From Clostridiaceae bacterium (GTDB lineage: Bacteria; Bacillota; Clostridia; Acetivibrionales; DTU013): 64,000 nt of DNA. Below the pieces are notes generated by a model. That model was not told the origin of the DNA and searched no databases. It saw nothing but the letters and a program-made list of their open reading frames with translations. Where the stretch lies: contig JAAYPO010000068.1 in NCBI GenBank assembly GCA_012519745.1, positions 3,154 to 67,153 of the forward strand. Reading direction: 5' to 3'. Made by a program: the position numbers and the translations under genes. This document shows, in pieces, positions 880-43,685 of the stretch (position 1 is its first letter; each line of letters begins with the position of its first letter).

Positions 880-1563
880 ATGGCGAATATTTTTGTATAT
901 AATAATCAGACGGGAGCCATGGAGCTCTATACACTGGCGGAATCTGATGCGATGCCCTACAATATCGGCAGGACGCTGACGGTGAATGAGTTCAGGGGCA
1001 GTTCCCGGGCAAATACTCTCTGGACGACAAGACGGGCTATGGAGGCTTTCAATATTACAAGGAGAGCATGGGGACGTCCTATATATGTCGGATTTGCTTT
1101 CAAGCGGATATGGGAGGGAGGACACGCTGCAATGTCACAGCATTATGCAGGCGTGTCTTTTGATGTCGGGCAGAACCTGGACAGCGTGACCAGGGATCAG
1201 CTCAGGAACACCGCTGCAGCTACAGGTGTGTGGACCTATGTGGAGCCTGCCTACCTGACTCCGACATGGGTGCACTTTGATGCCCGCGCAACACCGCCGG
1301 CATGTCCCGCGGGAGGTTATCCGCTGGTGCGTCAGGGAAGTGTGAACAATTATGTGCTGACGCTGCAGGATGCGCTCAATGCCCTGGGATACACCGGTTC
1401 AGGCCTGGACGGGATATTCGGCGGAGGCACAAGGAATGCTGTGGTGAACTTCCAGCGGGCACAGGGACTGTCCGCCGATGGAATCGTTGGATGCCAGACG
1501 TGGGAGAGACTCACAGAGCTTGCTGTATCCATTGGCCAGACACCTACGGTGGTATCGCCGTGA
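880..1563 (+). CDS. LAS/M15-family zinc peptidase with C-terminal PG_binding_1 domain (endolysin-like, no signal peptide)
   Basis: From ORF 856..1563, with the start moved to ATG 880 (AAGGGTGG RBS about 6 nt upstream). H-x6-D signature (SQHYAGVSFD) plus a distal His in WVHFD. C-terminal peptidoglycan-binding repeat LQDALNALGY..DGIFGGGTRNAVVNFQRAQGLSADGIVGCQTW. The N-terminus is hydrophilic. Confidence 0.6.
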   Translation: MANIFVYNNQTGAMELYTLAESDAMPYNIGRTLTVNEFRGSSRANTLWTTRRAMEAFNITRRAWGRPIYVGFAFKRIWEGGHAAMSQHYAGVSFDVGQNLDSVTRDQLRNTAAATGVWTYVEPAYLTPTWVHFDARATPPACPAGGYPLVRQGSVNNYVLTLQDALNALGYTGSGLDGIFGGGTRNAVVNFQRAQGLSADGIVGCQTWERLTELAVSIGQTPTVVSP

Positions 1564-1654
1564 CATCATATTATATAAATGGATCCACAAGCAAAAGCAG
1601 CCTAAAAAAGTAAACATAAAGAGGGAAAAGCAGTTTTGTGTCGAAATATATACT

Positions 1655-3820
1655 ATGTCATATTCTTATAGAGGGGCTATTGTGAGAAGGATATATGATA
1701 TTTCTGCGAGACTTTATGACAATCCTGCTGTATCAGCCGTAAGAAACGGACTCCTCATGATTTTTCCGATCATAATAATCGGTGCTTTTGCAGCGCTTTT
1801 TCAGAATCTGCACATACCGCAATATGACAGTTTTATGGCCGGTATCCTGGGAGCACAGTGGAGAACTGTCCTTCAGTTTATTATCGACATATCGAGCGGT
1901 ATAGTATCGACAGCGCTGACGGTCACAATCAGCTACTGTATGGCAGGCGGAACTGAAAAATCACTCAGCGGTTCAGTCATACCTGTTATTCCCTCAATTG
2001 TTTCTCTTATGTGCTATTTTGCCCTTACATTGGATACAAGCGGTGAGCAGGCACTTTATCCAATGTCTGCCGGAGGCCTGCCTGCTGCAATATTTACCGG
2101 CCTGGTCTCAGTCAAGCTCTTTACCGTTTTGTATGATCTTCTGAGAAGGAGGATCAATTATTCAGGTCTTGCCACAAGCAGGTACCTTACTCAGGTCCTG
2201 TTGTCCCTGGTTCCTGCTTTTGTCGTTATCACGATTTTCATTATGCTGCGGTACGCTGTTTTTAAGCTTGGTTACAGCGATTCCAACAGTGTCCTTGCAT
2301 ATTGGTTTGTCAGATTGTTTGATAATATCGGCAGCTTGCTTGCCAAACTGGTCATATACGCGCTGATCGTCCATTTATTCTGGTTTTTGGGGATCCATGG
2401 CAATATGATGCTGGGTCCTGTGATGAGAAGCGTTATAGATGATACTTTATCCTTTGAGCAGATAAGCATCATTACATCAGGTTCGTCATCATTTACTACA
2501 GGAGAGCTGACAATGACCTTTTTCAGCACATTTGTCTTTGTCGGAGGTGTTGGCTCGACCATATGTCTTCTTGCTGCCATCCTCATCACAAACAGGAGGA
2601 CCAACACTGCAAAGCTGGCACGATTATCGTTGCTGCCTGCACTATTCAATATTAATGAAATATTGGTTTTTGGTCTCCCGGTGATACTGAATCCTATATT
2701 CCTGATACCATTTTTACTGTGTCCCATAATCATGCTGCTTTTATCCTACCTGGCGATAATATCCGGCTTGCTTCCACCTGTATATCAGGCGGTTTACTGG
2801 GCAGCGCCGCCTATCTACAACGCTTATGCGGCCAGCGGCAGCATCATGGGCCCTGTTGTGCAGCTTTTGTGTATTGCCGTGGGGACCTTGCTGTACATAC
2901 CGTTTGTAAAGCTAAACGGGAAAATCGTTTCTGACAGGACAAAGTCCACATATCATGAACTGAAGAAGCAGATAGAGGAGTGCAAATATGGTGACGGGTT
3001 CTCTTTCCTCAAGAGAAACGATTCTGTGGGATTCCTGGCTTATGTGCTGTTCGGGGAGCTGAAAGCGGCCATCAGGGATGATAAATTGATGCTGGAATAC
3101 CAGCCCCTGGTAAATGACGAGCCTGGTGTCATTGGGCTGGAGGCGCTGCTGAGATGGCCTCATGATAAGTTTGGACGAATACCTCCTATAGTGGTAATAG
3201 CTATTGCAGAGGAATTCGGATGTATGGATGAGCTGGGCAGATGGGTGATCAAAACGGCATGCAGACAGATGTCTGTGTGGAATTCTGACGGCCACAGAGA
3301 TATCAGGCTGTCTATCAATGTGTCGCCTACACAGCTGAGGGATCCGGTACTTGCGGGGTATCTGGAGAAATGTATTAAAGAGAACGGCCTTAATGCAACC
3401 GATGTGGAACTTGAAATCACAGAGAACGTGGTGATGGATCTGGACAGCGGGACAAAGGAAAACATCGACAGGATCAAGACCTTCGGGGTCAAGCTTGCCA
3501 TGGATGACTTTGGTATGGGGTATACGTCGCTGCTTTACATCCGGCACTGCAATATCGACAGGATAAAAATCGACGGCTCGATCATCAGAGATATACTAAG
3601 GGATAAGAACTGTCAGGATATAGTCTCTTCCATGGTTTATCTGTGCAAATCACTGAATATCCAGGTAATAGCGGAGTTTGTAGAGAACGAGAAACAGTAT
3701 GCTCTTTTGAAAGAGCTTGGATGCAGTGAATACCAAGGATATCTTTTCAGCCCGCCGCTTCCGCCGGATAAGGTCCCGGACTTTTTGAATAAATTGAAGA
3801 GTGAGTATATTCAAGGCTGA
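1655..3820 (+). CDS. PTS EIIC (lactose/cellobiose type)-like membrane domain fused to an EAL c-di-GMP phosphodiesterase domain
   Basis: From ORF 1478..3820, with the start moved to ATG 1655 (MSYSYRG). The first ~440 aa are polytopic and hydrophobic and carry the EIIC type-3 hallmark FWFLGIHGNMMLGP. The C-terminal ~250 aa form a complete EAL domain: YQPLV, LEALLRW, SINVS, ELEITE, MDDFGMGYTS, KIDGS, AEFVEN, QGYLF. Confidence 0.8.
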   Translation: MSYSYRGAIVRRIYDISARLYDNPAVSAVRNGLLMIFPIIIIGAFAALFQNLHIPQYDSFMAGILGAQWRTVLQFIIDISSGIVSTALTVTISYCMAGGTEKSLSGSVIPVIPSIVSLMCYFALTLDTSGEQALYPMSAGGLPAAIFTGLVSVKLFTVLYDLLRRRINYSGLATSRYLTQVLLSLVPAFVVITIFIMLRYAVFKLGYSDSNSVLAYWFVRLFDNIGSLLAKLVIYALIVHLFWFLGIHGNMMLGPVMRSVIDDTLSFEQISIITSGSSSFTTGELTMTFFSTFVFVGGVGSTICLLAAILITNRRTNTAKLARLSLLPALFNINEILVFGLPVILNPIFLIPFLLCPIIMLLLSYLAIISGLLPPVYQAVYWAAPPIYNAYAASGSIMGPVVQLLCIAVGTLLYIPFVKLNGKIVSDRTKSTYHELKKQIEECKYGDGFSFLKRNDSVGFLAYVLFGELKAAIRDDKLMLEYQPLVNDEPGVIGLEALLRWPHDKFGRIPPIVVIAIAEEFGCMDELGRWVIKTACRQMSVWNSDGHRDIRLSINVSPTQLRDPVLAGYLEKCIKENGLNATDVELEITENVVMDLDSGTKENIDRIKTFGVKLAMDDFGMGYTSLLYIRHCNIDRIKIDGSIIRDILRDKNCQDIVSSMVYLCKSLNIQVIAEFVENEKQYALLKELGCSEYQGYLFSPPLPPDKVPDFLNKLKSEYIQG

Positions 3821-5111: not shown

Positions 5112-5178
5112 TTGCATAATATCAGCGATTCATTCAAGACTATGTATATGAAAGATATTGCATAGAAGGAGAATGAAG

Positions 5179-5343
5179 ATGAAGGATAAGAGGAAGGACT
5201 ACAATCTTGGTGTGCCGGTGGAGAAGCACGATACTGCGGCATGGGCGAATGTCGAGAAGAAGAAATCCCATTCCAGGGTGCCCATACCATCTGAGTTTCA
5301 GATCATAAATGCCAAGCTCCATGTGGACGAAAACGAGAAATGA
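5179..5343 (+). CDS. small conserved hypothetical protein (54 aa; resembles clostridial DUF3787-type small proteins)
   Basis: From ORF 5158..5343. ATG 5179 is preferred (GAAGGAG RBS 7 nt upstream). The sequence HDTAAWANVEKKK..IPSE..INAKLHVDENEK recalls a small clostridial protein family, from memory only. A strong terminator follows directly. Confidence 0.4.
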   Translation: MKDKRKDYNLGVPVEKHDTAAWANVEKKKSHSRVPIPSEFQIINAKLHVDENEK

Positions 5344-5350
5344 AGAAAAC

Positions 5351-5381
5351 GGGTCGTGATCGCGGATCACGGCCCATTTTT
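5351..5381 (+). terminator. Rho-independent terminator, probably bidirectional
   Basis: An 11-bp stem GGGTCGTGATC/GATCACGGCCC (one G-U pair) with a 3-nt loop, followed by ATTTTTAT on the + strand. On the - strand the same hairpin is followed by GTTTTCTTC. Confidence 0.6.
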
Positions 5382-5397: not shown

Positions 5398-5626
5398 GGC
5401 TGGCCGGCGGCTGCAAACCGACATCGGCTCCGATCATGGACAGAATGTAATTATCCATGCTCGTTCTTAAGCGGGCGCTGATAAACCGGCATCCAGCCTT
5501 ATTATCTGCGCCTGCGGCATCCGTGCCGCATGTTGTGGGTCGTAGTGCCGCTTTCGAACTTCGCATGGATAAACATTCTGTAGCCATTCACTGCGCATGA
5601 TGTCGGTTTGCAGCCGCCGGCCAGCC
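5398..5626. repeat. 229-bp rod-like inverted-repeat element (candidate structured ncRNA or MITE) in the nifJ 3' region
   Basis: Perfect 28-bp arms: GGCTGGCCGGCGGCTGCAAACCGACATC (5398-5425) and its exact reverse complement (5599-5626). A second helix pairs ATGGACAGAATGTAATTATCCATGC with GCATGGATAAACATTCTGTAGCCAT. Inner local hairpins are GCGCTGATAA..TTATCTGCGC and GCGGCA-TCC-GTGCCGC. No credible ORF is present. Confidence 0.7.
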
Positions 5627-5657
5627 TTACTAGCAGGGGACGTCCCCTGCTTCCGTG

Positions 5658-8600
5658 CTATTGTCCGCAGAGGCGGCGGTACGCTTCGTAGCGGTCCTGG
5701 GCATGGGCCTCCGATTGCTGGAAGAGGTTTTCTGCCAGGTCGGGGAAGACGTTCATCAGCTGGGTGTAGCGCACCTCGCCGGTGAGGAAATCCCTGTAGG
5801 GTCGTTCCGGCTTCCTGGATTCGAGCTGGAACGGGTTTTTGCCTGCCTCACGCAGCTCCGGGTTGAACCGGTAGAGGTGCCAATAGCCCGTATCCACGGC
5901 CTTGCGCTCCTCTGCGATGCTGGTGCCCATTCCGGACTTGATGCCATGGGATATGCAGGGAGCATATGCAATGACCAGCGACGGTCCCTTGTAGTTCTCG
6001 GCCTCTGTCAGCGCCTTTATCGTCTGGTTCATATTGGCCCCCATTGCGATTTGTGCCACATAAACATATCCATAGCTCATTGCCATCATGCCAAGATCCT
6101 TTTTCTTCATGTGCTTTCCTGCAGAAGCGAATTTGGCTACTGCTCCGGCAGGAGTTGCCTTAGAGGACTGACCGCCTGTGTTGGAATATATTTCGGTGTC
6201 CAGTACTAATAGATTGACATCGGCTCCTGTTGCCAGGACGTGGTCAAGGCCTCCGTAGCCGATATCGTAAGCCCATCCGTCACCCCCTATTATCCAGAAG
6301 GATCTCTTGGTCAGATAGTCTTTTTTGCTCATTATTTCTTCCAGGAGCCTGTTGTCTTTCAAATCTGTCTCTGACAAAGCCTTGAGTACATTTGCAGAGG
6401 CAGCCTCAGAGGCTTCGCCGTCGTCCTTGGACTCAAGCCACGCACCGAAGGCCTGCTTGACTGAAGCCGGCAGCTCCTGCTCCATGCTTTGCCGCATCAG
6501 ATCGGCAATGCGCTCTCTTATTTGATTGACTCCAAGGTACATGCCGAATCCGAACTCCGCATTGTCTTCGAATAATGAATTGGCCCATGCCGGCCCTTTG
6601 CCCTTCGAATTTGTTGTGTATGAGATGGACGGAGAGCTGGCGCTCCAGATGGATGAGCAGCCTGTTGCGTTGGCTATCATCATGCGGTCCCCGAACAGCT
6701 GAGTGATGAGCCTGACGTAAGGAGTTTCACCGCATCCGGGACAGGCTCCGTTATATTCCAGCAGCGGCTGTACGAATTGGCTTCCCTTCAGCGTCTTTTT
6801 GTCCATGACATTTTCCTTTGGAGCCAGGGACAAAGAGAACTCCCAATTGTCGTCCTGTTTTTCTGTTTCCTCCTCTGCAGGCACCATTATCAGCGCTTTC
6901 TCGGAGGTAGGGCAGACATCGGCACAATTGCCGCAGCCGGTGCAGTCCAGTGGACTGACCTGTACTCGGAAGCGCATGTTTTCAAGCCCTTTTCCGGCTG
7001 CCTTCAGTGTAGTATAGTTTTCCGGCGCTTTAGCGGCCTCCTGCTCATCCAGCAGGAACAGCCGTATCGTAGCATGGGGGCATACATACGAGCATCTGCC
7101 GCACTGTATGCAGTTATTGGGCTGCCATTGGGGCAGCATTATTGCTATACCGCGCTTTTCATAGGCTGTGGTCCCCAGGGGATGTGTCCCGTCCTCTATG
7201 CCGTTGAAAGCGCTGACAGGCAGCTCATCTCCTTCATGGCGGGCCATGGGCCTTTGTATCCTGTGTATGAAATCCGGCAGTGTTTCAGGCGTCCTGCTCT
7301 CGTCGGGAGCATCGGCCCATTCTTTTGGTACGCTTACCTCGTGCAGTGCGCCGATGGAGAGGTCCACTGCCTGGTTATTCATGTCGACTATTTTCCTTCC
7401 CTTTCTTCCGTAGGCACTTTCGATGGAAGCCTTCAGATACTTTATCGCATCCTCCACCGGAATGATGTTTGCAAGCTTGAAGAACACTGTCTGCATAATC
7501 ATATTTATCCTGTTGCCAAGACCGATATCTCCTGCTATTTTTACTGCGTCTATAGTGTAGAAGCTGATATCGTTTTGGGCAATATACCTTTTCAGCTTTG
7601 CAGGGAGATTGGTTTCAAGCTCGTCTGCATTCCATGGGCAGTTCAGCACGAACACTCCCTTCTTTTTCAGGCCTTTAAGGATATCATAGTTGTACAGGAA
7701 CGACTTGTTGTGGCAGGCGATATAGTCTGCATTATATACGAGGTAAGGGCTCCTGATGGGGTTCGGCCCGAACCTGAGATGGGAAACTGTCGTACCGCCG
7801 GATTTTTTGCTGTCGTATGAGAAGTATGCCTGTGCGTAAAGGTCCGTATTATCTCCGATGATCTTTATCGCCGATTTATTGGCGCCCACAGTGCCGTCGG
7901 ATCCGAGGCCCCAGAACTTACAGCTGATGGTGCCTGCGGGTGTGGTTTCGATGATGTCTCCCTCCGGCAGTGAGGTATATGTGACATCGTCGACTATACC
8001 TATGGTGAACCCGTCCTTTGGTTCATTGCTCATAATGTTTTCAAATACCGCAGCTATCTGTGACGGGCGTGTATCCTTGGAGCCAAGACCGTATCTGCCG
8101 CCAATTATGAGAGGCTTCTGTCCGCTCACGCTGTAATACGCCTTGCAGACATCCAGATAGAGCGGCTCGCCGGGAGAGCCGGGCTCCTTTGTACGGTCCA
8201 GGACCGCTATTCCTTTCGCTGATTTTGGTATGGCATCCAGCAAATGCTTTTCTGAAAACGGCCTGTAGAGTCTGACCCTGACCGCACCTGTCTTTTTGCC
8301 CTCTGCATTCATATAGTCCACGGTTTCGTTGACAGTGTCACATACCGAACCCATCGCGATTATTACATATTCGGCATCAGGTGCTCCGTAATAATCAAAC
8401 AGATGGTAGCTCCTGCCGGTTGTCCGCTCTATATCCTTCAGGCAGTCTTCGACGATGGAGGGCACCCGGTCATAAAACTTGTTTGAGGCTTCTCTTCCCT
8501 GAAAGTATATATCAGGGTTCTGAGCTGTCCCTCTGGCAACAGGGTGCTCGGGATTCAGAGCCCTGTTTCTGAAATCGCTGACAGCCTGGATATCCACCAG

Positions 8601-9176
8601 CCCCGCCAGATCAGAATACTCTATGGTGCTGATTTTCTGGACCTCGTGGGAGGTCCTGAAGCCATCGAAAAAGTGGACGAAGGGGATCCTGGATCTGATG
8701 GCGGCCAAATGCGCCGCACAACCCAGGTCCATGACCTCCTGCACATTGGCTGAGGCCAGCATGGCGGCACCTGTCTGCCTGCAGGCCATGACGTCCTGAT
8801 GGTCGCCGAATATGGAAAGGGCATGGGCTGCAAGGGCGCGGGCAGAAACGTGCAGCACGCCGGGCAGAAGCTCCCCCGCCATTTTATACAGGTTTGGTAT
8901 CATCAGCAGCAAGCCCTGTGAGGCTGTATAGGTAGTCGTCAGTGCGCCTGCCTGCAGAGAGCCGTGCATGGCGCCTGCGGCACCTGCCTCGGACTGCATT
9001 TCTACAACATTTACTATCTGGCCGAATATGTTCTTTTTACCATGTGATGCCCACTCGTCGACATATTCTGCCATGGGTGATGACGGCGTTATTGGAAAGA
9101 TCGCGGCGACCTCGGTAAATGCGTATGAGGCGTAAGCTGCAGCCTGATTGCCGTCCATTGTTGACATTTTCATCAA
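5658..9176 (-). CDS. nifJ: pyruvate:ferredoxin (flavodoxin) oxidoreductase
   Basis: 1172 aa. The N-terminus GNQAAAYASYAFTEVAAIFPITPSSPMAE is typical of the family. Two 4Fe-4S ferredoxin motifs are present (CIQCGRCSYVCP and CTGCGNCADVCP), as is the TPP-binding block IIGGDGWAYDIGYGGLDH. Confidence 0.97.
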   Translation of the reverse strand: MMKMSTMDGNQAAAYASYAFTEVAAIFPITPSSPMAEYVDEWASHGKKNIFGQIVNVVEMQSEAGAAGAMHGSLQAGALTTTYTASQGLLLMIPNLYKMAGELLPGVLHVSARALAAHALSIFGDHQDVMACRQTGAAMLASANVQEVMDLGCAAHLAAIRSRIPFVHFFDGFRTSHEVQKISTIEYSDLAGLVDIQAVSDFRNRALNPEHPVARGTAQNPDIYFQGREASNKFYDRVPSIVEDCLKDIERTTGRSYHLFDYYGAPDAEYVIIAMGSVCDTVNETVDYMNAEGKKTGAVRVRLYRPFSEKHLLDAIPKSAKGIAVLDRTKEPGSPGEPLYLDVCKAYYSVSGQKPLIIGGRYGLGSKDTRPSQIAAVFENIMSNEPKDGFTIGIVDDVTYTSLPEGDIIETTPAGTISCKFWGLGSDGTVGANKSAIKIIGDNTDLYAQAYFSYDSKKSGGTTVSHLRFGPNPIRSPYLVYNADYIACHNKSFLYNYDILKGLKKKGVFVLNCPWNADELETNLPAKLKRYIAQNDISFYTIDAVKIAGDIGLGNRINMIMQTVFFKLANIIPVEDAIKYLKASIESAYGRKGRKIVDMNNQAVDLSIGALHEVSVPKEWADAPDESRTPETLPDFIHRIQRPMARHEGDELPVSAFNGIEDGTHPLGTTAYEKRGIAIMLPQWQPNNCIQCGRCSYVCPHATIRLFLLDEQEAAKAPENYTTLKAAGKGLENMRFRVQVSPLDCTGCGNCADVCPTSEKALIMVPAEEETEKQDDNWEFSLSLAPKENVMDKKTLKGSQFVQPLLEYNGACPGCGETPYVRLITQLFGDRMMIANATGCSSIWSASSPSISYTTNSKGKGPAWANSLFEDNAEFGFGMYLGVNQIRERIADLMRQSMEQELPASVKQAFGAWLESKDDGEASEAASANVLKALSETDLKDNRLLEEIMSKKDYLTKRSFWIIGGDGWAYDIGYGGLDHVLATGADVNLLVLDTEIYSNTGGQSSKATPAGAVAKFASAGKHMKKKDLGMMAMSYGYVYVAQIAMGANMNQTIKALTEAENYKGPSLVIAYAPCISHGIKSGMGTSIAEERKAVDTGYWHLYRFNPELREAGKNPFQLESRKPERPYRDFLTGEVRYTQLMNVFPDLAENLFQQSEAHAQDRYEAYRRLCGQ

Positions 9177-9327: not shown

Positions 9328-9393
9328 AGATAAAGCATGAGTTTTGTCGAGTATCTGCGATTGGTATAAGATTATTGATAAGTGAGGTTCAGG

Positions 9394-11352
9394 ATGGAAA
9401 TTGAAAACAAAAGAATCCTCATAGCTGACGATAACAAGGATATACATGATGACATCAAGTATATCCTTGAGACTTCTTCCGGGTATATGGAGGACTATCA
9501 GGAAACAAAGCTCCTGAAGGAGGAGCTGTTTGGAGAGAGCCGGCAGAGCCCTGCAAATAAGGCTGTAATAGATATAAAGTATGATATCGATGATGCTTAT
9601 CAGGGGAACGAGGCCATTGAAATGGTCAGCAGGGCCAGAGAAGCCGGAGAACCTTATTCGCTGATATTCATGGATGTCAGGATGCCGCCGGGGATGGATG
9701 GGATCGAGACAATAGAGAAAATATGGGAGATCGACCGTGATGTGGGTGTAGTGATATGTACCGCATATTCGGATTACTCCTGGGATCAAATCATTTCAAA
9801 GCTTGGGCACAAGGATAACCTTCTGTTTATAAGAAAACCCTTCGACAATGTATCACTGAAGCAGATAGCTCTTGCCATGACTACAAAATGGAGCCTGAAA
9901 ATGCAGGTGAAAAAGCATATAGGAACCCTTGAGCAGGAAGTGGACAAAAGGACAATGGAGCTTAAGCTGACCGTTGAGAAGCTAAGGGATGAAATAGTGC
10001 TCCGTGAAGAAAAGGAGAAGCTTTTGGCGTATAGCGCCCATTATGACTCATTGACTGAGCTGCTCAACAGGAGATCCTTCTCTGACTCCGTCAAATCACT
10101 CATCGATGAGGAGCCGAGCCGCTGCAGGTCGTTTTCACTATTCTATCTTGACCTTGATGATTTTAAAAGCGTCAATGATATTTACGGTCACGATATCGGA
10201 GACCAGCTGCTGATCAAAGTGTCAGAGAGGATAGGAAGGATGCTGGATGAGCATGCATGCTATGTGCCGGACTATGTAAGCGAGCACGGAAAGGTAAAGG
10301 CTATATTCAGACTTGGAGGAGATGAATTCACGGCAGTTGTAAATGAGACAGACCGAAGGGCTGTGGGAAAAATAGCGCAGTCTCTTATTGACTCGATCAG
10401 TGAGCCTTATATCATCTCAGGGCATGAGGTAGATGTTTCCTGCTGTATCGGTATCAGCATATACAAAGGGAAGGATACTCCGATAAATACATTGCTGAAG
10501 TATGCGGATATAGCTCTCTATGAAGCGAAGAAGGTACACAGCACATATAGGTTCCATGAACTGTCGGAGTCATATTCCTACATCAATGAAAAAAGGATCG
10601 AGAGGGAATTAAAAAAAGCCATCGCCAGGAATCAGATCGATGTATATATGCAAAGTCTGGTCAACACCAGGGATGAGGTCATCGGAATGCAGTCGCTGAT
10701 CAGGTGGCTGCACCCGGAATATGGTGAGCTTGAGCCCGGGCGTTTTTTGCATATCGCACAGAAATCCGACCAGATCATTGTCCTTGGCGCATATGTTATC
10801 AGGAAATCACTGGAGTATCTAAAAAGGATACATGAATCCGGCCACGACAAGCTTTTTGTGATGGTCAGCTGTACATCCAGGGAATTTTACCATCCGGGTT
10901 TTGTTGACAGCATAAAGTCGGCGGTCAATGAAGCAGGCATAGCGCCGTCATATCTGAAGCTTAATCTGGAGGACAAGTTCACCTTCCAGACTACACCGGG
11001 TGCCCTGGCTATTATTCGGGAGCTCAATGAGTTCGGGGTACAGTTTGCCCTCAATGGCTTTGACAGTGATTATCCTGCATTCGTTTTCCTGCAGCAGGTC
11101 CCGAAGGATACTATGATCAAGCTTAACAGAGCGTATGTCAAAAATATTGCCACAGATACAAAAAACCAAAAATTTCTGATGGCTCTTATGGATATCATTG
11201 AGACCTGGGAACTGGATGTGATCATAAGCGGTATTGAGACCCAGGAGCAAAAGAGCATCCTTGATTCAAGGGAGTGTATACTGCAGGGGTATCATTTCAA
11301 TACACCCAAGCCCATCGACCAGTATCTGAAAGATCTTGCGGCAGGAGAATAA
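9394..11352 (+). CDS. response regulator: REC + GGDEF (intact) + degenerate EAL domain
   Basis: From ORF 9382..11352, with ATG 9394 preferred (GTGAGG RBS). REC blocks: ILIADDN, FMDVRMPPGMDG, VICTAYSD, IRKPF. GGDEF domain with RLGGDEFTAV. The EAL-like domain has its key residues replaced: GMQSLIRW, VSCTS, LNLED, NGFDSDY, KLNRAY, SGIET. QGYHF is retained. Confidence 0.85.
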   Translation: MEIENKRILIADDNKDIHDDIKYILETSSGYMEDYQETKLLKEELFGESRQSPANKAVIDIKYDIDDAYQGNEAIEMVSRAREAGEPYSLIFMDVRMPPGMDGIETIEKIWEIDRDVGVVICTAYSDYSWDQIISKLGHKDNLLFIRKPFDNVSLKQIALAMTTKWSLKMQVKKHIGTLEQEVDKRTMELKLTVEKLRDEIVLREEKEKLLAYSAHYDSLTELLNRRSFSDSVKSLIDEEPSRCRSFSLFYLDLDDFKSVNDIYGHDIGDQLLIKVSERIGRMLDEHACYVPDYVSEHGKVKAIFRLGGDEFTAVVNETDRRAVGKIAQSLIDSISEPYIISGHEVDVSCCIGISIYKGKDTPINTLLKYADIALYEAKKVHSTYRFHELSESYSYINEKRIERELKKAIARNQIDVYMQSLVNTRDEVIGMQSLIRWLHPEYGELEPGRFLHIAQKSDQIIVLGAYVIRKSLEYLKRIHESGHDKLFVMVSCTSREFYHPGFVDSIKSAVNEAGIAPSYLKLNLEDKFTFQTTPGALAIIRELNEFGVQFALNGFDSDYPAFVFLQQVPKDTMIKLNRAYVKNIATDTKNQKFLMALMDIIETWELDVIISGIETQEQKSILDSRECILQGYHFNTPKPIDQYLKDLAAGE

Positions 11353-42509: not shown

Positions 42510-43286
42510 CTAGTATACGAACACCATGCGGCCGATCCATGCTTTAACGGGCTTTGACCAAAGCCATTTGTTGGTGGCGCTGTCATCAAAGTAGAAGAGA
42601 GCGCCGTTACTCGGGTCATTGCCTTTCAGTGCTTCGAGGGCGGCATTCCTGTCCTGCTGTGACGCGGGTTTTTTGATCATTCCGTTTTTGACAGGCGTAA
42701 ATTGATAATACCCATTGCTGCTGATTTCATATATAACGGATGATATTGTGTTTGGGAACAGATCGCTCTTTATCCTGTTCACTATTACCGCTGCGACACC
42801 GACTTTTGCTGCATATGGTTCACTTTCAGCTTCTGCCCTTACTAGTCTGGCCAGCAGATCGAGCTCTGCCTCAGTATACGATATGACAGCTTTACTGCTG
42901 TTTGTTGACGAATTCGTGCCGGCGGCCATACCTGGAATATTCAGCTGCTGTCCGGGATATATCATGTCATCCCATTTGTTGTTTGCCTTTCTCAGCTGAG
43001 CTAAAGAAATACCATACTTGCCTGCTATGATGCTCAGTGTTTCTCCGCTTTTTACCGTATGGCTCCGGGCCCTTACATAAAGCTTCTGACCGGGATAGAT
43101 CGTATCGCCGGACAGCTTGTTGTCCGATTTTATCACCGTGTAAGATGTGTTGAACATCTGTCCGATGATGTACAGCGAGTCGTTGCGCTGTACCGTGTAG
43201 CTTGCACCAAAGGCAGCCTGGGCTGTCAGTACAACAGATAAAACGACACCGGCAGTCAATGCCGCTGCTTTTTTGAATAATTTCAT
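42510..43286 (-). CDS. secreted cell-wall hydrolase: signal peptide + 2x LysM + SleB/CwlJ-type Hydrolase_2 domain
   Basis: N-terminal signal sequence MKLFKKAAALTAGVVLSVVLTAQAAFG. Two LysM repeats (YTVQRNDSLYIIGQMF.. and HTVKSGETLSIIAGKY..). Hydrolase_2 block LLARLVRAEAESEPYAAKVGVAAVIVNRIKS..YQFTPV. Confidence 0.85.
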   Translation of the reverse strand: MKLFKKAAALTAGVVLSVVLTAQAAFGASYTVQRNDSLYIIGQMFNTSYTVIKSDNKLSGDTIYPGQKLYVRARSHTVKSGETLSIIAGKYGISLAQLRKANNKWDDMIYPGQQLNIPGMAAGTNSSTNSSKAVISYTEAELDLLARLVRAEAESEPYAAKVGVAAVIVNRIKSDLFPNTISSVIYEISSNGYYQFTPVKNGMIKKPASQQDRNAALEALKGNDPSNGALFYFDDSATNKWLWSKPVKAWIGRMVFVY

Positions 43287-43297
43287 TTTTCCCCCTT

Positions 43298-43452
43298 TTC
43301 GCCTCCGAGGTTAGTTTTCGGGTTCGGGTCGAGGTAACCCTGCTCAAAATGAGATTCACCCACTGGACTTATCGGTGCATGAGGACATTCCCATGCTTAC
43401 CGGTCCCGGTATTGCTTGTCCCCCGTACTCTCTTCGAGATTCGGCTTTTTAT
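43298..43452 (-). promoter_or_regulatory. c-di-AMP riboswitch (ydaO/yuaA class) in the 5' leader of the LysM/SleB-type hydrolase
   Basis: The minus-strand RNA carries these blocks in order: GCCGAAUC, GUACGGGGGACAA, GUGGGUGAAUC, GAGCAGGG, ACCCGAACCCGAAAACUAACCUCGGAGGC. They match recalled B. subtilis ydaO blocks GCUUAAUC, GAGCGGGGGACCCA, GGGGUGAAUC, GGUAGGG and ACCCGAACCCGUCAGCUAACCUCGUAAGCG. The element ends about 12 nt before the GGGGG RBS. Confidence 0.8.
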
Positions 43453-43685
43453 TTTTGGCAGCGCCTCTTCCTCTTTCACTGCTAACTGTGATAATTAATG
43501 AAGCGCCGGTCTTATGTCAACATGTATTCTAACAGAGGAGCTTATGCTTTTCCATGATACATTTCTGGCAGAAGTGGTAGTATAATGGAGAAAGAGATAA
43601 TGATTTTCAGGAGACATTCCTTTGCTTTTGAAGCAGCTTCCCTTGCACAGGAGTGTCCCCTTACCGAATGAGGTTGATAAGATAT

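Follow-up and report, generated by a model that had tools for sequence, protein, structure and literature searches.

Palindromic repeats of the ERIC/IRU, Correia (NEMIS), RUP and BOX families occupy intergenic regions of bacteria, where they are co-transcribed and where the resulting RNA hairpins are cut by ribonuclease III (RNase III) or RNase E. Single stem-loops at the 3' side of a gene are known as well, i.e. the 'positive retroregulator' of the Bacillus thuringiensis cry genes and, for negative retroregulation, the RNase III site sib of lambda int. The present analysis concerns a 229-nt inverted-repeat element past the stop codon of nifJ, the gene for pyruvate:ferredoxin oxidoreductase, in a 64,000-nt stretch of DNA (the window) from an uncultured Clostridiaceae bacterium (contig JAAYPO010000068.1).

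The element resembles the ERIC/IRU, Correia, RUP and BOX repeats in its size (order of 100-230 bp), its imperfectly palindromic sequence with good terminal inverted repeats, its location in transcribed spacers or 3' untranslated regions (UTRs), its long hairpin fold and its presence or absence between strains. However, those repeats are dispersed and multi-copy, some of them with target duplications, whereas the nifJ element occurs at a single locus in everything that was searched, is orthologous across species and has no target duplication. With the cry and sib retroregulators it shares a strong hairpin past the stop of a highly expressed gene, for which control of 3'-to-5' decay or cutting by RNase III would be expected. 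Those retroregulators are short (tens of nt) and their function has been shown by experiment, whereas the nifJ rod is 229 nt long, branched and equipped with conserved loops, and its function is inferred from sequence. The term 'positive retroregulator' is also used in PMC13001229. Overall, the element is of a known kind (the long palindromic hairpins of bacterial 3' regions), but it is a member of no described family.

Comparison of the sequences gives good support to the view that the element is a single-locus, vertically inherited and selectively constrained non-coding module, which consists of a short hairpin (H1) and the 229-nt quasi-palindrome that is predicted to fold as a long rod. That this module is confined to one genus-level clade of uncultured anaerobic-digester Clostridia is equally well supported. 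The element is probably new and lineage-specific, a small structured RNA or DNA and not a jumping element or a member of a known RNA family.

Sequence and predicted fold

The element sits in the 314-nt spacer between nifJ, which is encoded on the minus strand and ends with the stop codon TAG at 5658-5660, and a convergent gene for a small spore protein. Its two arms are complementary at 28/28 nt and are separated by 173 nt. Both were located by an inverted-repeat search, in which they were the sole close-range inverted repeat of at least 20 nt in the 64-kb window, and the 28-mer and the 20-mer of the arm gave 0 matches in 100 shuffles of the window. Read in the sense of nifJ (minus strand), the nifJ-proximal 5' arm (5599..5626) and the distal 3' arm (5398..5425) form the closing helix, from which the rod interior (5426..5598) is predicted to continue, on the same strand, with an internal loop (5426-5435 opposite 5588-5598), a second helix of ~24 bp (5436-5460 with 5563-5587), a short third helix (5463-5474 with 5548-5559) and two apical hairpins (5475-5511 and 5514-5529). 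The first-pass annotation of this DNA had described the perfect 28-bp repeat as well as the internal loop, both further helices and the two apical hairpins, and all of these were recovered in the predicted fold.

For the 271-nt region as a whole, the predicted folding energy is -158 kcal/mol on the nifJ strand and -161 kcal/mol on the plus strand, with z-scores of -14.2 and -12.9, respectively, and 0/200 shuffled sequences were as stable. The GC content of the element (56.8%) is higher than that of its left flank (45.1%), of nifJ (52.8%) and of the window (49.0%), so that its description as more GC-rich than its surroundings stands, although 'markedly' was a generous word for it.

Conservation among relatives

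Relatives were gathered by a nifJ homologue search, in which protein P0001 was 100% identical to the nifJ product of the window, and by look-ups of the closest proteins, which together gave five related species and two outgroups. The branching order from nifJ DNA identities is (L032,(window,(L003/L038,(L002,(L015+L034))))), where each L number denotes a retrieved locus. The clade member that is most distant by nifJ identity (L032/L033) carries a full-length, collinear copy of the element at the same site (6605-6831), with its distal arm at 6804-6831. Between the window and L032 the element is identical at 204/229 positions (89%), compared to 51% at the four-fold degenerate sites of nifJ (n=507) and to 30%, 39%, 64% and 66% in four other non-coding stretches of the same two loci. 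The excess over 51% has a binomial p of 2e-34. The differences are distributed evenly over the element, with 13 on its 5' side and 12 on its 3' side; by structure, 16 fall among the 166 paired columns and 9 among the 63 unpaired ones. Across three species the 5' half has an identity of 83-89%, and in the third of these (L038) the figure for the 5' half plus apex is 83-87%. The outer 20 nt of the proximal arm are unchanged in L015, L003 and L038, and conservation of the sequence ATGCGMAGYGA, the 5' side of the internal loop, extends to four species.

An identity of this level could in principle follow from selection or from recent transfer. H1 and the right flank (CCCCACA...) are recognisably homologous between the carriers, yet they are more diverged than the element itself. 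Since the flanks are homologous but diverged, while position and orientation are identical, recent transfer of exactly the element segment is unlikely, and purifying selection appears to be the better explanation of the 89% identity.

The predicted structure is retained together with the sequence. The L032 region is predicted to form the same rod (z = -9.7), in which 72 of the 83 pairs of the window are unchanged, 3 are compensatory (U-A to C-G, C-G to G-U and A-U to C-G), 1 is altered compatibly on one side, 5 no longer pair and 2 fall in gaps; the RNAalifold consensus of the window and L032 has 76 pairs, again with 3 compensatory ones. The proximal arm of L032 differs from that of the window at 4/28 positions, and at all four the pairing partner is substituted as well, for which the calculated chance is 1/20,475. 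Pairs that are changed on both sides number 5, versus ~0.8 expected, although 2 of the 5 do not restore pairing. This excess of doubly changed pairs indicates that the two arms evolve in a coupled manner. The element therefore shows what is generally asked of a structured RNA, i.e. conservation above the neutral level (89% vs 51%) and a kept secondary structure (the same rod in L032).

The coupling of the arms does not in itself point to selection on RNA. The rod of the window has 65 Watson-Crick pairs and 0 G-U pairs, and for this reason templating of the arms at the DNA level fits better than selection at the RNA level. The perfect 28-bp arms are probably a by-product of quasi-palindrome template switching during replication (a mechanism treated in PMC7202029), which would not require RNA-level selection.

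L032 also has an extra partial 5' arm (6563-6580), located 42 nt ahead of the element. Its pairing with the 3' arm (outer 18 nt) reaches 94%, compared to 89% for the regular arm, and this better pairing suggests that two mutually exclusive closing helices exist in that species.

Loss and rearrangement of the module

Within the species of the window, exact-protein look-ups with the two genes beyond the element retrieved seven independent Logan/ENA contigs from biogas fermenters. Over the portion of the element that each of them covers, all seven are identical (100%) to the window except for a single mismatch at the end of one contig, and because these are independent metagenome assemblies the element is no assembly artefact. 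A further contig from JGI (L001) is 99.9% identical to the window across 6.5 kb. At its end (6555-6583) it diverges 13 nt into the proximal arm, where …GGCTGGCCGGCGG passes into GGGGGACACCACCTCCAGCCCCCTGTCTG, and it stops 29 nt later; this tail resembles the right flank of L038. From its sequence, the end of L001 may represent a deletion allele within the species or an assembly artefact.

Between species the module is found in several states. L038/L039, which belong to the same species as L003-L006, keep the 5' arm through to the apex, while in place of the 3' half they have ~470 nt of AT-rich sequence with another, unrelated inverted-repeat element, after which a degenerate distal (3') arm adjoins the conserved right flank. 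In L015, the first 52 nt of the element run straight into the final 4 nt of the distal arm, which the right flank follows; this state is most simply read as an internal deletion. The module is absent from L002 and from L034-L037, the latter being of the same species as L015 (four-fold sites 94.8% identical) and having their nifJ stop 13 nt from the terminator. These empty alleles also lack H1 and both flanks, so that the indel amounts to ~190-300 nt with no defined junction. With respect to import of the L015 allele by recombination, no clear divergent tract was found beside the module. The spacers of the two outgroups (L016 and L017, ~200 nt) are unrelated. Thus, the module has been deleted, truncated or interrupted across sister lineages and strains, and the most parsimonious history seems to be that it arose once, at the root of the clade, and was later lost or damaged repeatedly. 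The first-pass annotation had proposed that a lack of the element at orthologous nifJ loci would mark it as probably a local accident; such a lack was found in some lineages, but not in others.

The same spacers contain a number of other repeats. In L038 (~6762-6823; 7008-7076 in L039) a 15-nt tandem repeat, GGTGCAGATGCCGCA, is present in ~4 copies and expands the first apical hairpin. In L003 (6546-6854) and L039 (6536-6927), H1 is expanded to ~5 tandem copies of a 19-nt unit, CCTGGAAGGGGGGCCGCTC, and a unit of 123-124 nt, which comprises the last ~17 nt of nifJ, the stop, H1 and the first 20 nt of the arm, is repeated 2-2.6 times; four independent assemblies break within this region. The outgroup L016 has its own, unrelated 24-bp hairpin (5260-5312, 92%) downstream of nifJ, and strong hairpins without U tracts thus recur past nifJ in different lineages.

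Terminators and the proposed role in cis

Whether the rod is transcribed depends on where transcription of nifJ ends. The only consensus terminator of the region is bidirectional (5346..5381) and consists of a hairpin (5351-5375) with a T run, together with GTTTTCTTCATTT after it on the nifJ strand, in agreement with the earlier assignment (5351-5381). It serves the spore-protein gene on the plus strand and, by inference, read-through from nifJ on the minus strand. This terminator is kept at every orthologous locus, and in the empty alleles L002 and L034 it is found 13-20 nt past the nifJ stop. The stop is directly followed by the terminator in these alleles, which shows that the terminator serves nifJ too.

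H1, in turn, is a 20-nt perfect palindrome on the minus strand (5632..5651) that starts 7 nt past the nifJ stop and would have an 8-bp GC stem as RNA; its earlier description as an exact palindrome without a U tract between the element and the stop was confirmed. Past the nifJ stop, L032, L015 and L003/L038 have homologous hairpins of the form GGRAGCA...TGCTYCC, among which a G-C/A-T change is compensatory, and H1 is thus shared by all four carriers. A run of TTTTTTGT or TTTTGTT downstream makes H1 a canonical terminator in L032 and L015, while no such run is found in the window or in L038. Taking a GC hairpin with a U tract as the definition of an intrinsic terminator, both H1 of the window (AGTAAGG downstream on the nifJ strand) and the rod (CCACACAGG downstream) fall outside it. 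Given that H1 has no U tract in the window, nifJ transcription probably crosses the rod to the shared terminator.

A role in transcription or RNA stability, which was one of the functions originally considered, would be the most plausible function class for the element. The nifJ transcripts would read through the rod to the terminator at 5346-5381, and the rod RNA could exert an effect in cis at the message's 3' end. A 28-bp helix at the base of a rod of ~-140 kcal/mol would be expected to block 3'-to-5' exonucleases, and it is long enough for the double-strand-specific RNase III, so that the rod may be a barrier to the former, a substrate for the latter, or both. In this way the rod could set the half-life of the nifJ mRNA, and it could also release a stable 3'-UTR-derived RNA with the conserved loops as its functional surface, perhaps acting in trans. 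As a family of explanations, such cis or 3'-UTR RNA mechanisms are preferred here, though tentatively and at somewhat less than even chances. The earlier idea of a structured RNA in the nifJ 3' UTR is retained in so far as the element is structured, conserved and non-coding (89% identity in the orthologue, with the rod kept), while the resemblance to 6S RNA that accompanied it is not.

Several observations weigh against this role in cis. As H1 has a T run in L032 and L015 and looks like an efficient terminator there, only read-through would bring transcription into the rod of those species. Conservation of the 5' half persists in L038 though the partner of this half is gone and its 5' arm is not part of a stable helix, which means that part of the constraint is on the sequence and that the rod may not be the constrained feature. 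Broken pairs (5) outnumber compensated ones (3), and with only two full-length sequences covariation has low power. The asymmetry between G-U and C-A, which could serve as a strand indicator, gave no signal. Finally, the loss of the module in L002, L034-L037 and perhaps L001 implies that it is not essential.

Alternative explanations

A bolder version of the RNA explanation holds that the rod is a new, independently functional regulatory RNA, made through read-through or from a promoter of its own, trimmed by RNase III and binding a protein or a target RNA with its conserved internal and apical loops. This is thought unlikely, albeit worth stating; if true, a regulatory RNA would couple the expression of pyruvate:ferredoxin oxidoreductase to a trans-acting output in digester Clostridia. 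No known family could be assigned to it. For 6S RNA (RF00013), with which the first-pass annotation had compared the element, cmscan found no match in the region at E up to 10. The likeness is that of a long, mostly helical RNA with an internal bubble, but the element has a branched apex, lies in a 3' region instead of being its own gene and is present in one small clade only. Permissive Rfam scans of the region returned sub-threshold matches, and no family reached its threshold. One such match was to the TwoAYGGAY RNA (RF01731), a clostridial RNA that has been proposed to bind CsrA as a small RNA (PMC4333381). The apex, read on the nifJ strand, indeed has two adjacent hairpins, with ACGGAU and CUGGAU loops, inside an outer stem, and the hosts are Clostridia as well, but the element remains far below the gathering score (19.3 bits vs 43, E = 1.2 over the 236 nt searched), AYGGAY is matched by one loop only and L038 has not retained the motif. 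The related idea of a CsrA sponge was dropped, as the GGA of the first hairpin is CAGA in L038 and the L032 orthologue has no match to the family. A search of the literature found no nifJ-linked small RNA in Clostridia.

A small RNA could also be made independently from the opposite strand. A weak sigma-70-like promoter match (CTGATA-16-TATTAT, 9/12 positions) is present on the plus strand at 5478..5505, inside an apical hairpin. A transcript from it would be complementary to the conserved nifJ-proximal half, H1 and the end of nifJ, and base-pairing between the two RNAs could lead to cleavage of the nifJ message. Both L032 and L038 retain the hexamers approximately, the part that is conserved in L038 (arm to apex) corresponds to the putative promoter plus the transcribed part, and an antisense RNA would explain why the element is conserved past a good terminator in L032. 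However, the match is weak and coincides with the two hairpin arms, which would be conserved anyway, no terminator follows on the plus strand, and the 3' half, upstream of the putative promoter, is as conserved as the 5' half (12 vs 13 differences between window and L032). An antisense origin is therefore held to be improbable.

The first-pass annotation had also considered a miniature inverted-repeat transposable element (MITE), and the nifJ element could be a relic or domesticated form of one, inserted in a 'safe' convergent spacer once in the ancestor of the clade, or repeatedly. The 28-bp perfect terminal inverted repeats, the length of 229 bp without credible coding capacity and the entirely Watson-Crick helices would suit such an origin, as would the presence/absence polymorphism between species and strains, the contigs that often break in the element and the fact that the L038 spacer hosts a second, unrelated inverted-repeat element (37-nt arms, 84% complementarity). 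On the other hand, the flanks (…CTGTGTGG before the element and TTACTAGC… after it) share no direct repeat, i.e. there is no target-site duplication. A clean empty site is missing as well, since the alleles of L002 and L034-L037 are also without H1 and the flanks. Position, orientation and flanks are the same in four species, and a neutral relic would be expected to be ~50-65% identical where 89% is observed.

Second copies were found neither in the 64-kb window (28-mer and 20-mer with 3 mismatches, blastn-short) nor by an nhmmer search with a two-species profile over the window and all fetched loci. With respect to the check that had been proposed for copies in this and related genomes, the element was found once in the 64 kb, and in the fetched loci at the orthologous site only. 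The arm core had no related match in IMG/VR, plasmids or phages. In GTDB representatives and JGI metagenomes the 20-nt core gave 12 chance matches, unrelated and mostly in GC-rich genomes, but these scans also missed loci known to be positive, as the host genomes are evidently not in the collections, and their power for this clade is low. With one copy in the window and in the fetched loci, no target-site duplication and homologous flanks in four species, the element did not bear out the suggestion of a MITE, and even a relic of one is doubtful. The second, AT-rich inverted-repeat element in L038 (6960-7135, also in L039), in which 37-nt arms with the core GTGTGCAAAAATTCAACTGTTTCAG and 84% complementarity enclose 102 nt, makes a better MITE candidate than the nifJ element does.

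A fourth possibility is that the element encodes a small protein or leader peptide. A candidate open reading frame (ORF) of 43 codons, MRSEWLQNVYPCEVRKRH..., runs on the minus strand through 5467..5598 (start at 5598), so that its start region would be locked by the 28-bp fold-back helix in the manner of a type I toxin mRNA. In hok-type mRNAs of this class, fold-back inhibition occurs by long-range pairing of the 5' and 3' ends. The element is similar in that long-range 5'-3' pairing buries the region upstream of the start of a small ORF, at a locus that is dispensable and patchily distributed. It differs in its peptide, which in contrast to type I toxins is hydrophilic and for which coding is poorly supported, and in that no promoter or antitoxin RNA was identified.

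The ATG is kept in four species, with a weak AGGA or GGGA 4 nt ahead of it in three, but there is no Shine-Dalgarno sequence in the window. The first 11 codons have synonymous changes only, the six variable sites of the first 12 codons being five synonymous ones plus codon 12 (TGC/TGT/TGA). The position of the stop is kept (TAA in the window, TGA in L032), both 1-nt indels between window and L032 fall outside the ORF, and the 15-nt repeat expansion of L038, being a multiple of 3, preserves the frame. Nevertheless, the changes show no overall codon periodicity (5, 6 and 8 by codon position), 6/12 of those between window and L032 are at codon position 2, and L038 has an in-frame TGA at codon 12. 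Furthermore, the peptide has no Pfam or NCBIfam match and no homologue among 5.8 billion proteins, and the non-coding 3' half of the element is as conserved as the half with the ORF. The original statement that the region has no credible ORF can be kept in the sense that this ORF is unlikely to be coding, though it is open in two species, and a small protein is given very little credence here. The TGA of L038 aligns with cysteine codons in the window (TGC) and in L032 (TGT), and the frame is open beyond it. Most likely it is a plain nonsense change. Alignment of cysteine with TGA is the usual way in which selenocysteine codons are detected, and a bolder sub-reading would be that the ORF is real and that this site hints at selenocysteine.

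The quasi-palindrome might also be DNA without function that arose when replication slipped and switched templates in a spacer prone to rearrangement. The spacer is in fact hypervariable, with 19-nt, 15-nt and 124-nt tandem arrays, arm duplications and large indels, L016 has an unrelated long hairpin in its spacer, and the element has been lost repeatedly. Yet an identity of 89%, compared to 51% at silent sites and 30-66% in other spacers, cannot be neutral unless the element was recently transferred, against which the homologous but diverged flanks argue, so that this explanation is strongly disfavoured.

The least probable explanation is an element that functions as DNA, i.e. an invertible switch with recombinase sites or paired sites for a DNA-binding protein, which would agree with perfect 28-bp inverted repeats around 173 bp (clostridial invertible switches are in the same size range), with the purely Watson-Crick complementarity and with conservation despite the terminator ahead of the element in L032, but of which the switch is contradicted by a single orientation in 9 assemblies and 3 other species, by an interior that is itself self-complementary, which a switch does not need, and by the lack of a recombinase gene within ~6 kb on either side according to the domains of the neighbouring genes.

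Genomic context

The nifJ gene (5658..9176, minus strand) has the domains of a pyruvate:ferredoxin oxidoreductase (Pfam POR_N at 1.6e-78, POR, EKR, PFOR_II, Fer4/Fer4_7 and TPP_enzyme_C), and the convergent gene at 5173-5343 on the plus strand encodes, according to the domain search, a small spore protein of 56 aa that is CDIF630_02480-like. The locus is flanked by two cyclic-di-GMP signalling genes, both on the plus strand: a PTS_EIIC-EAL fusion (1478-3820) and a Response_reg-GGDEF-EAL gene (9382-11352). Their arrangement around nifJ is kept in all relatives. Elsewhere in the window, a c-di-AMP riboswitch (ydaO/yuaA leader, RF00379) is found at 43286-43456 on the minus strand (75.5 bits, E = 1e-15), which is the sole Rfam family above its gathering threshold in the whole window.

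Significance

The reach of the finding is narrow, as it concerns one dispensable locus in one small uncultured clade. Within that clade, the module is a natural example of a long quasi-palindrome that is conserved far above the neutral level and yet has been repeatedly deleted, truncated and invaded in sister lineages. It may also be an example of arms that are kept perfect by templating at the DNA level and not by selection at the RNA level. Judged from its sequence, the element may reasonably be put forward as a candidate structured RNA motif that is new and of narrow distribution. Pyruvate:ferredoxin oxidoreductase is a central enzyme of anaerobic fermentation that is very highly expressed, and the hosts drive biogas reactors. 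If the element is indeed a functional RNA, it would be a new structured 3'-region element that controls the pyruvate:ferredoxin oxidoreductase message.

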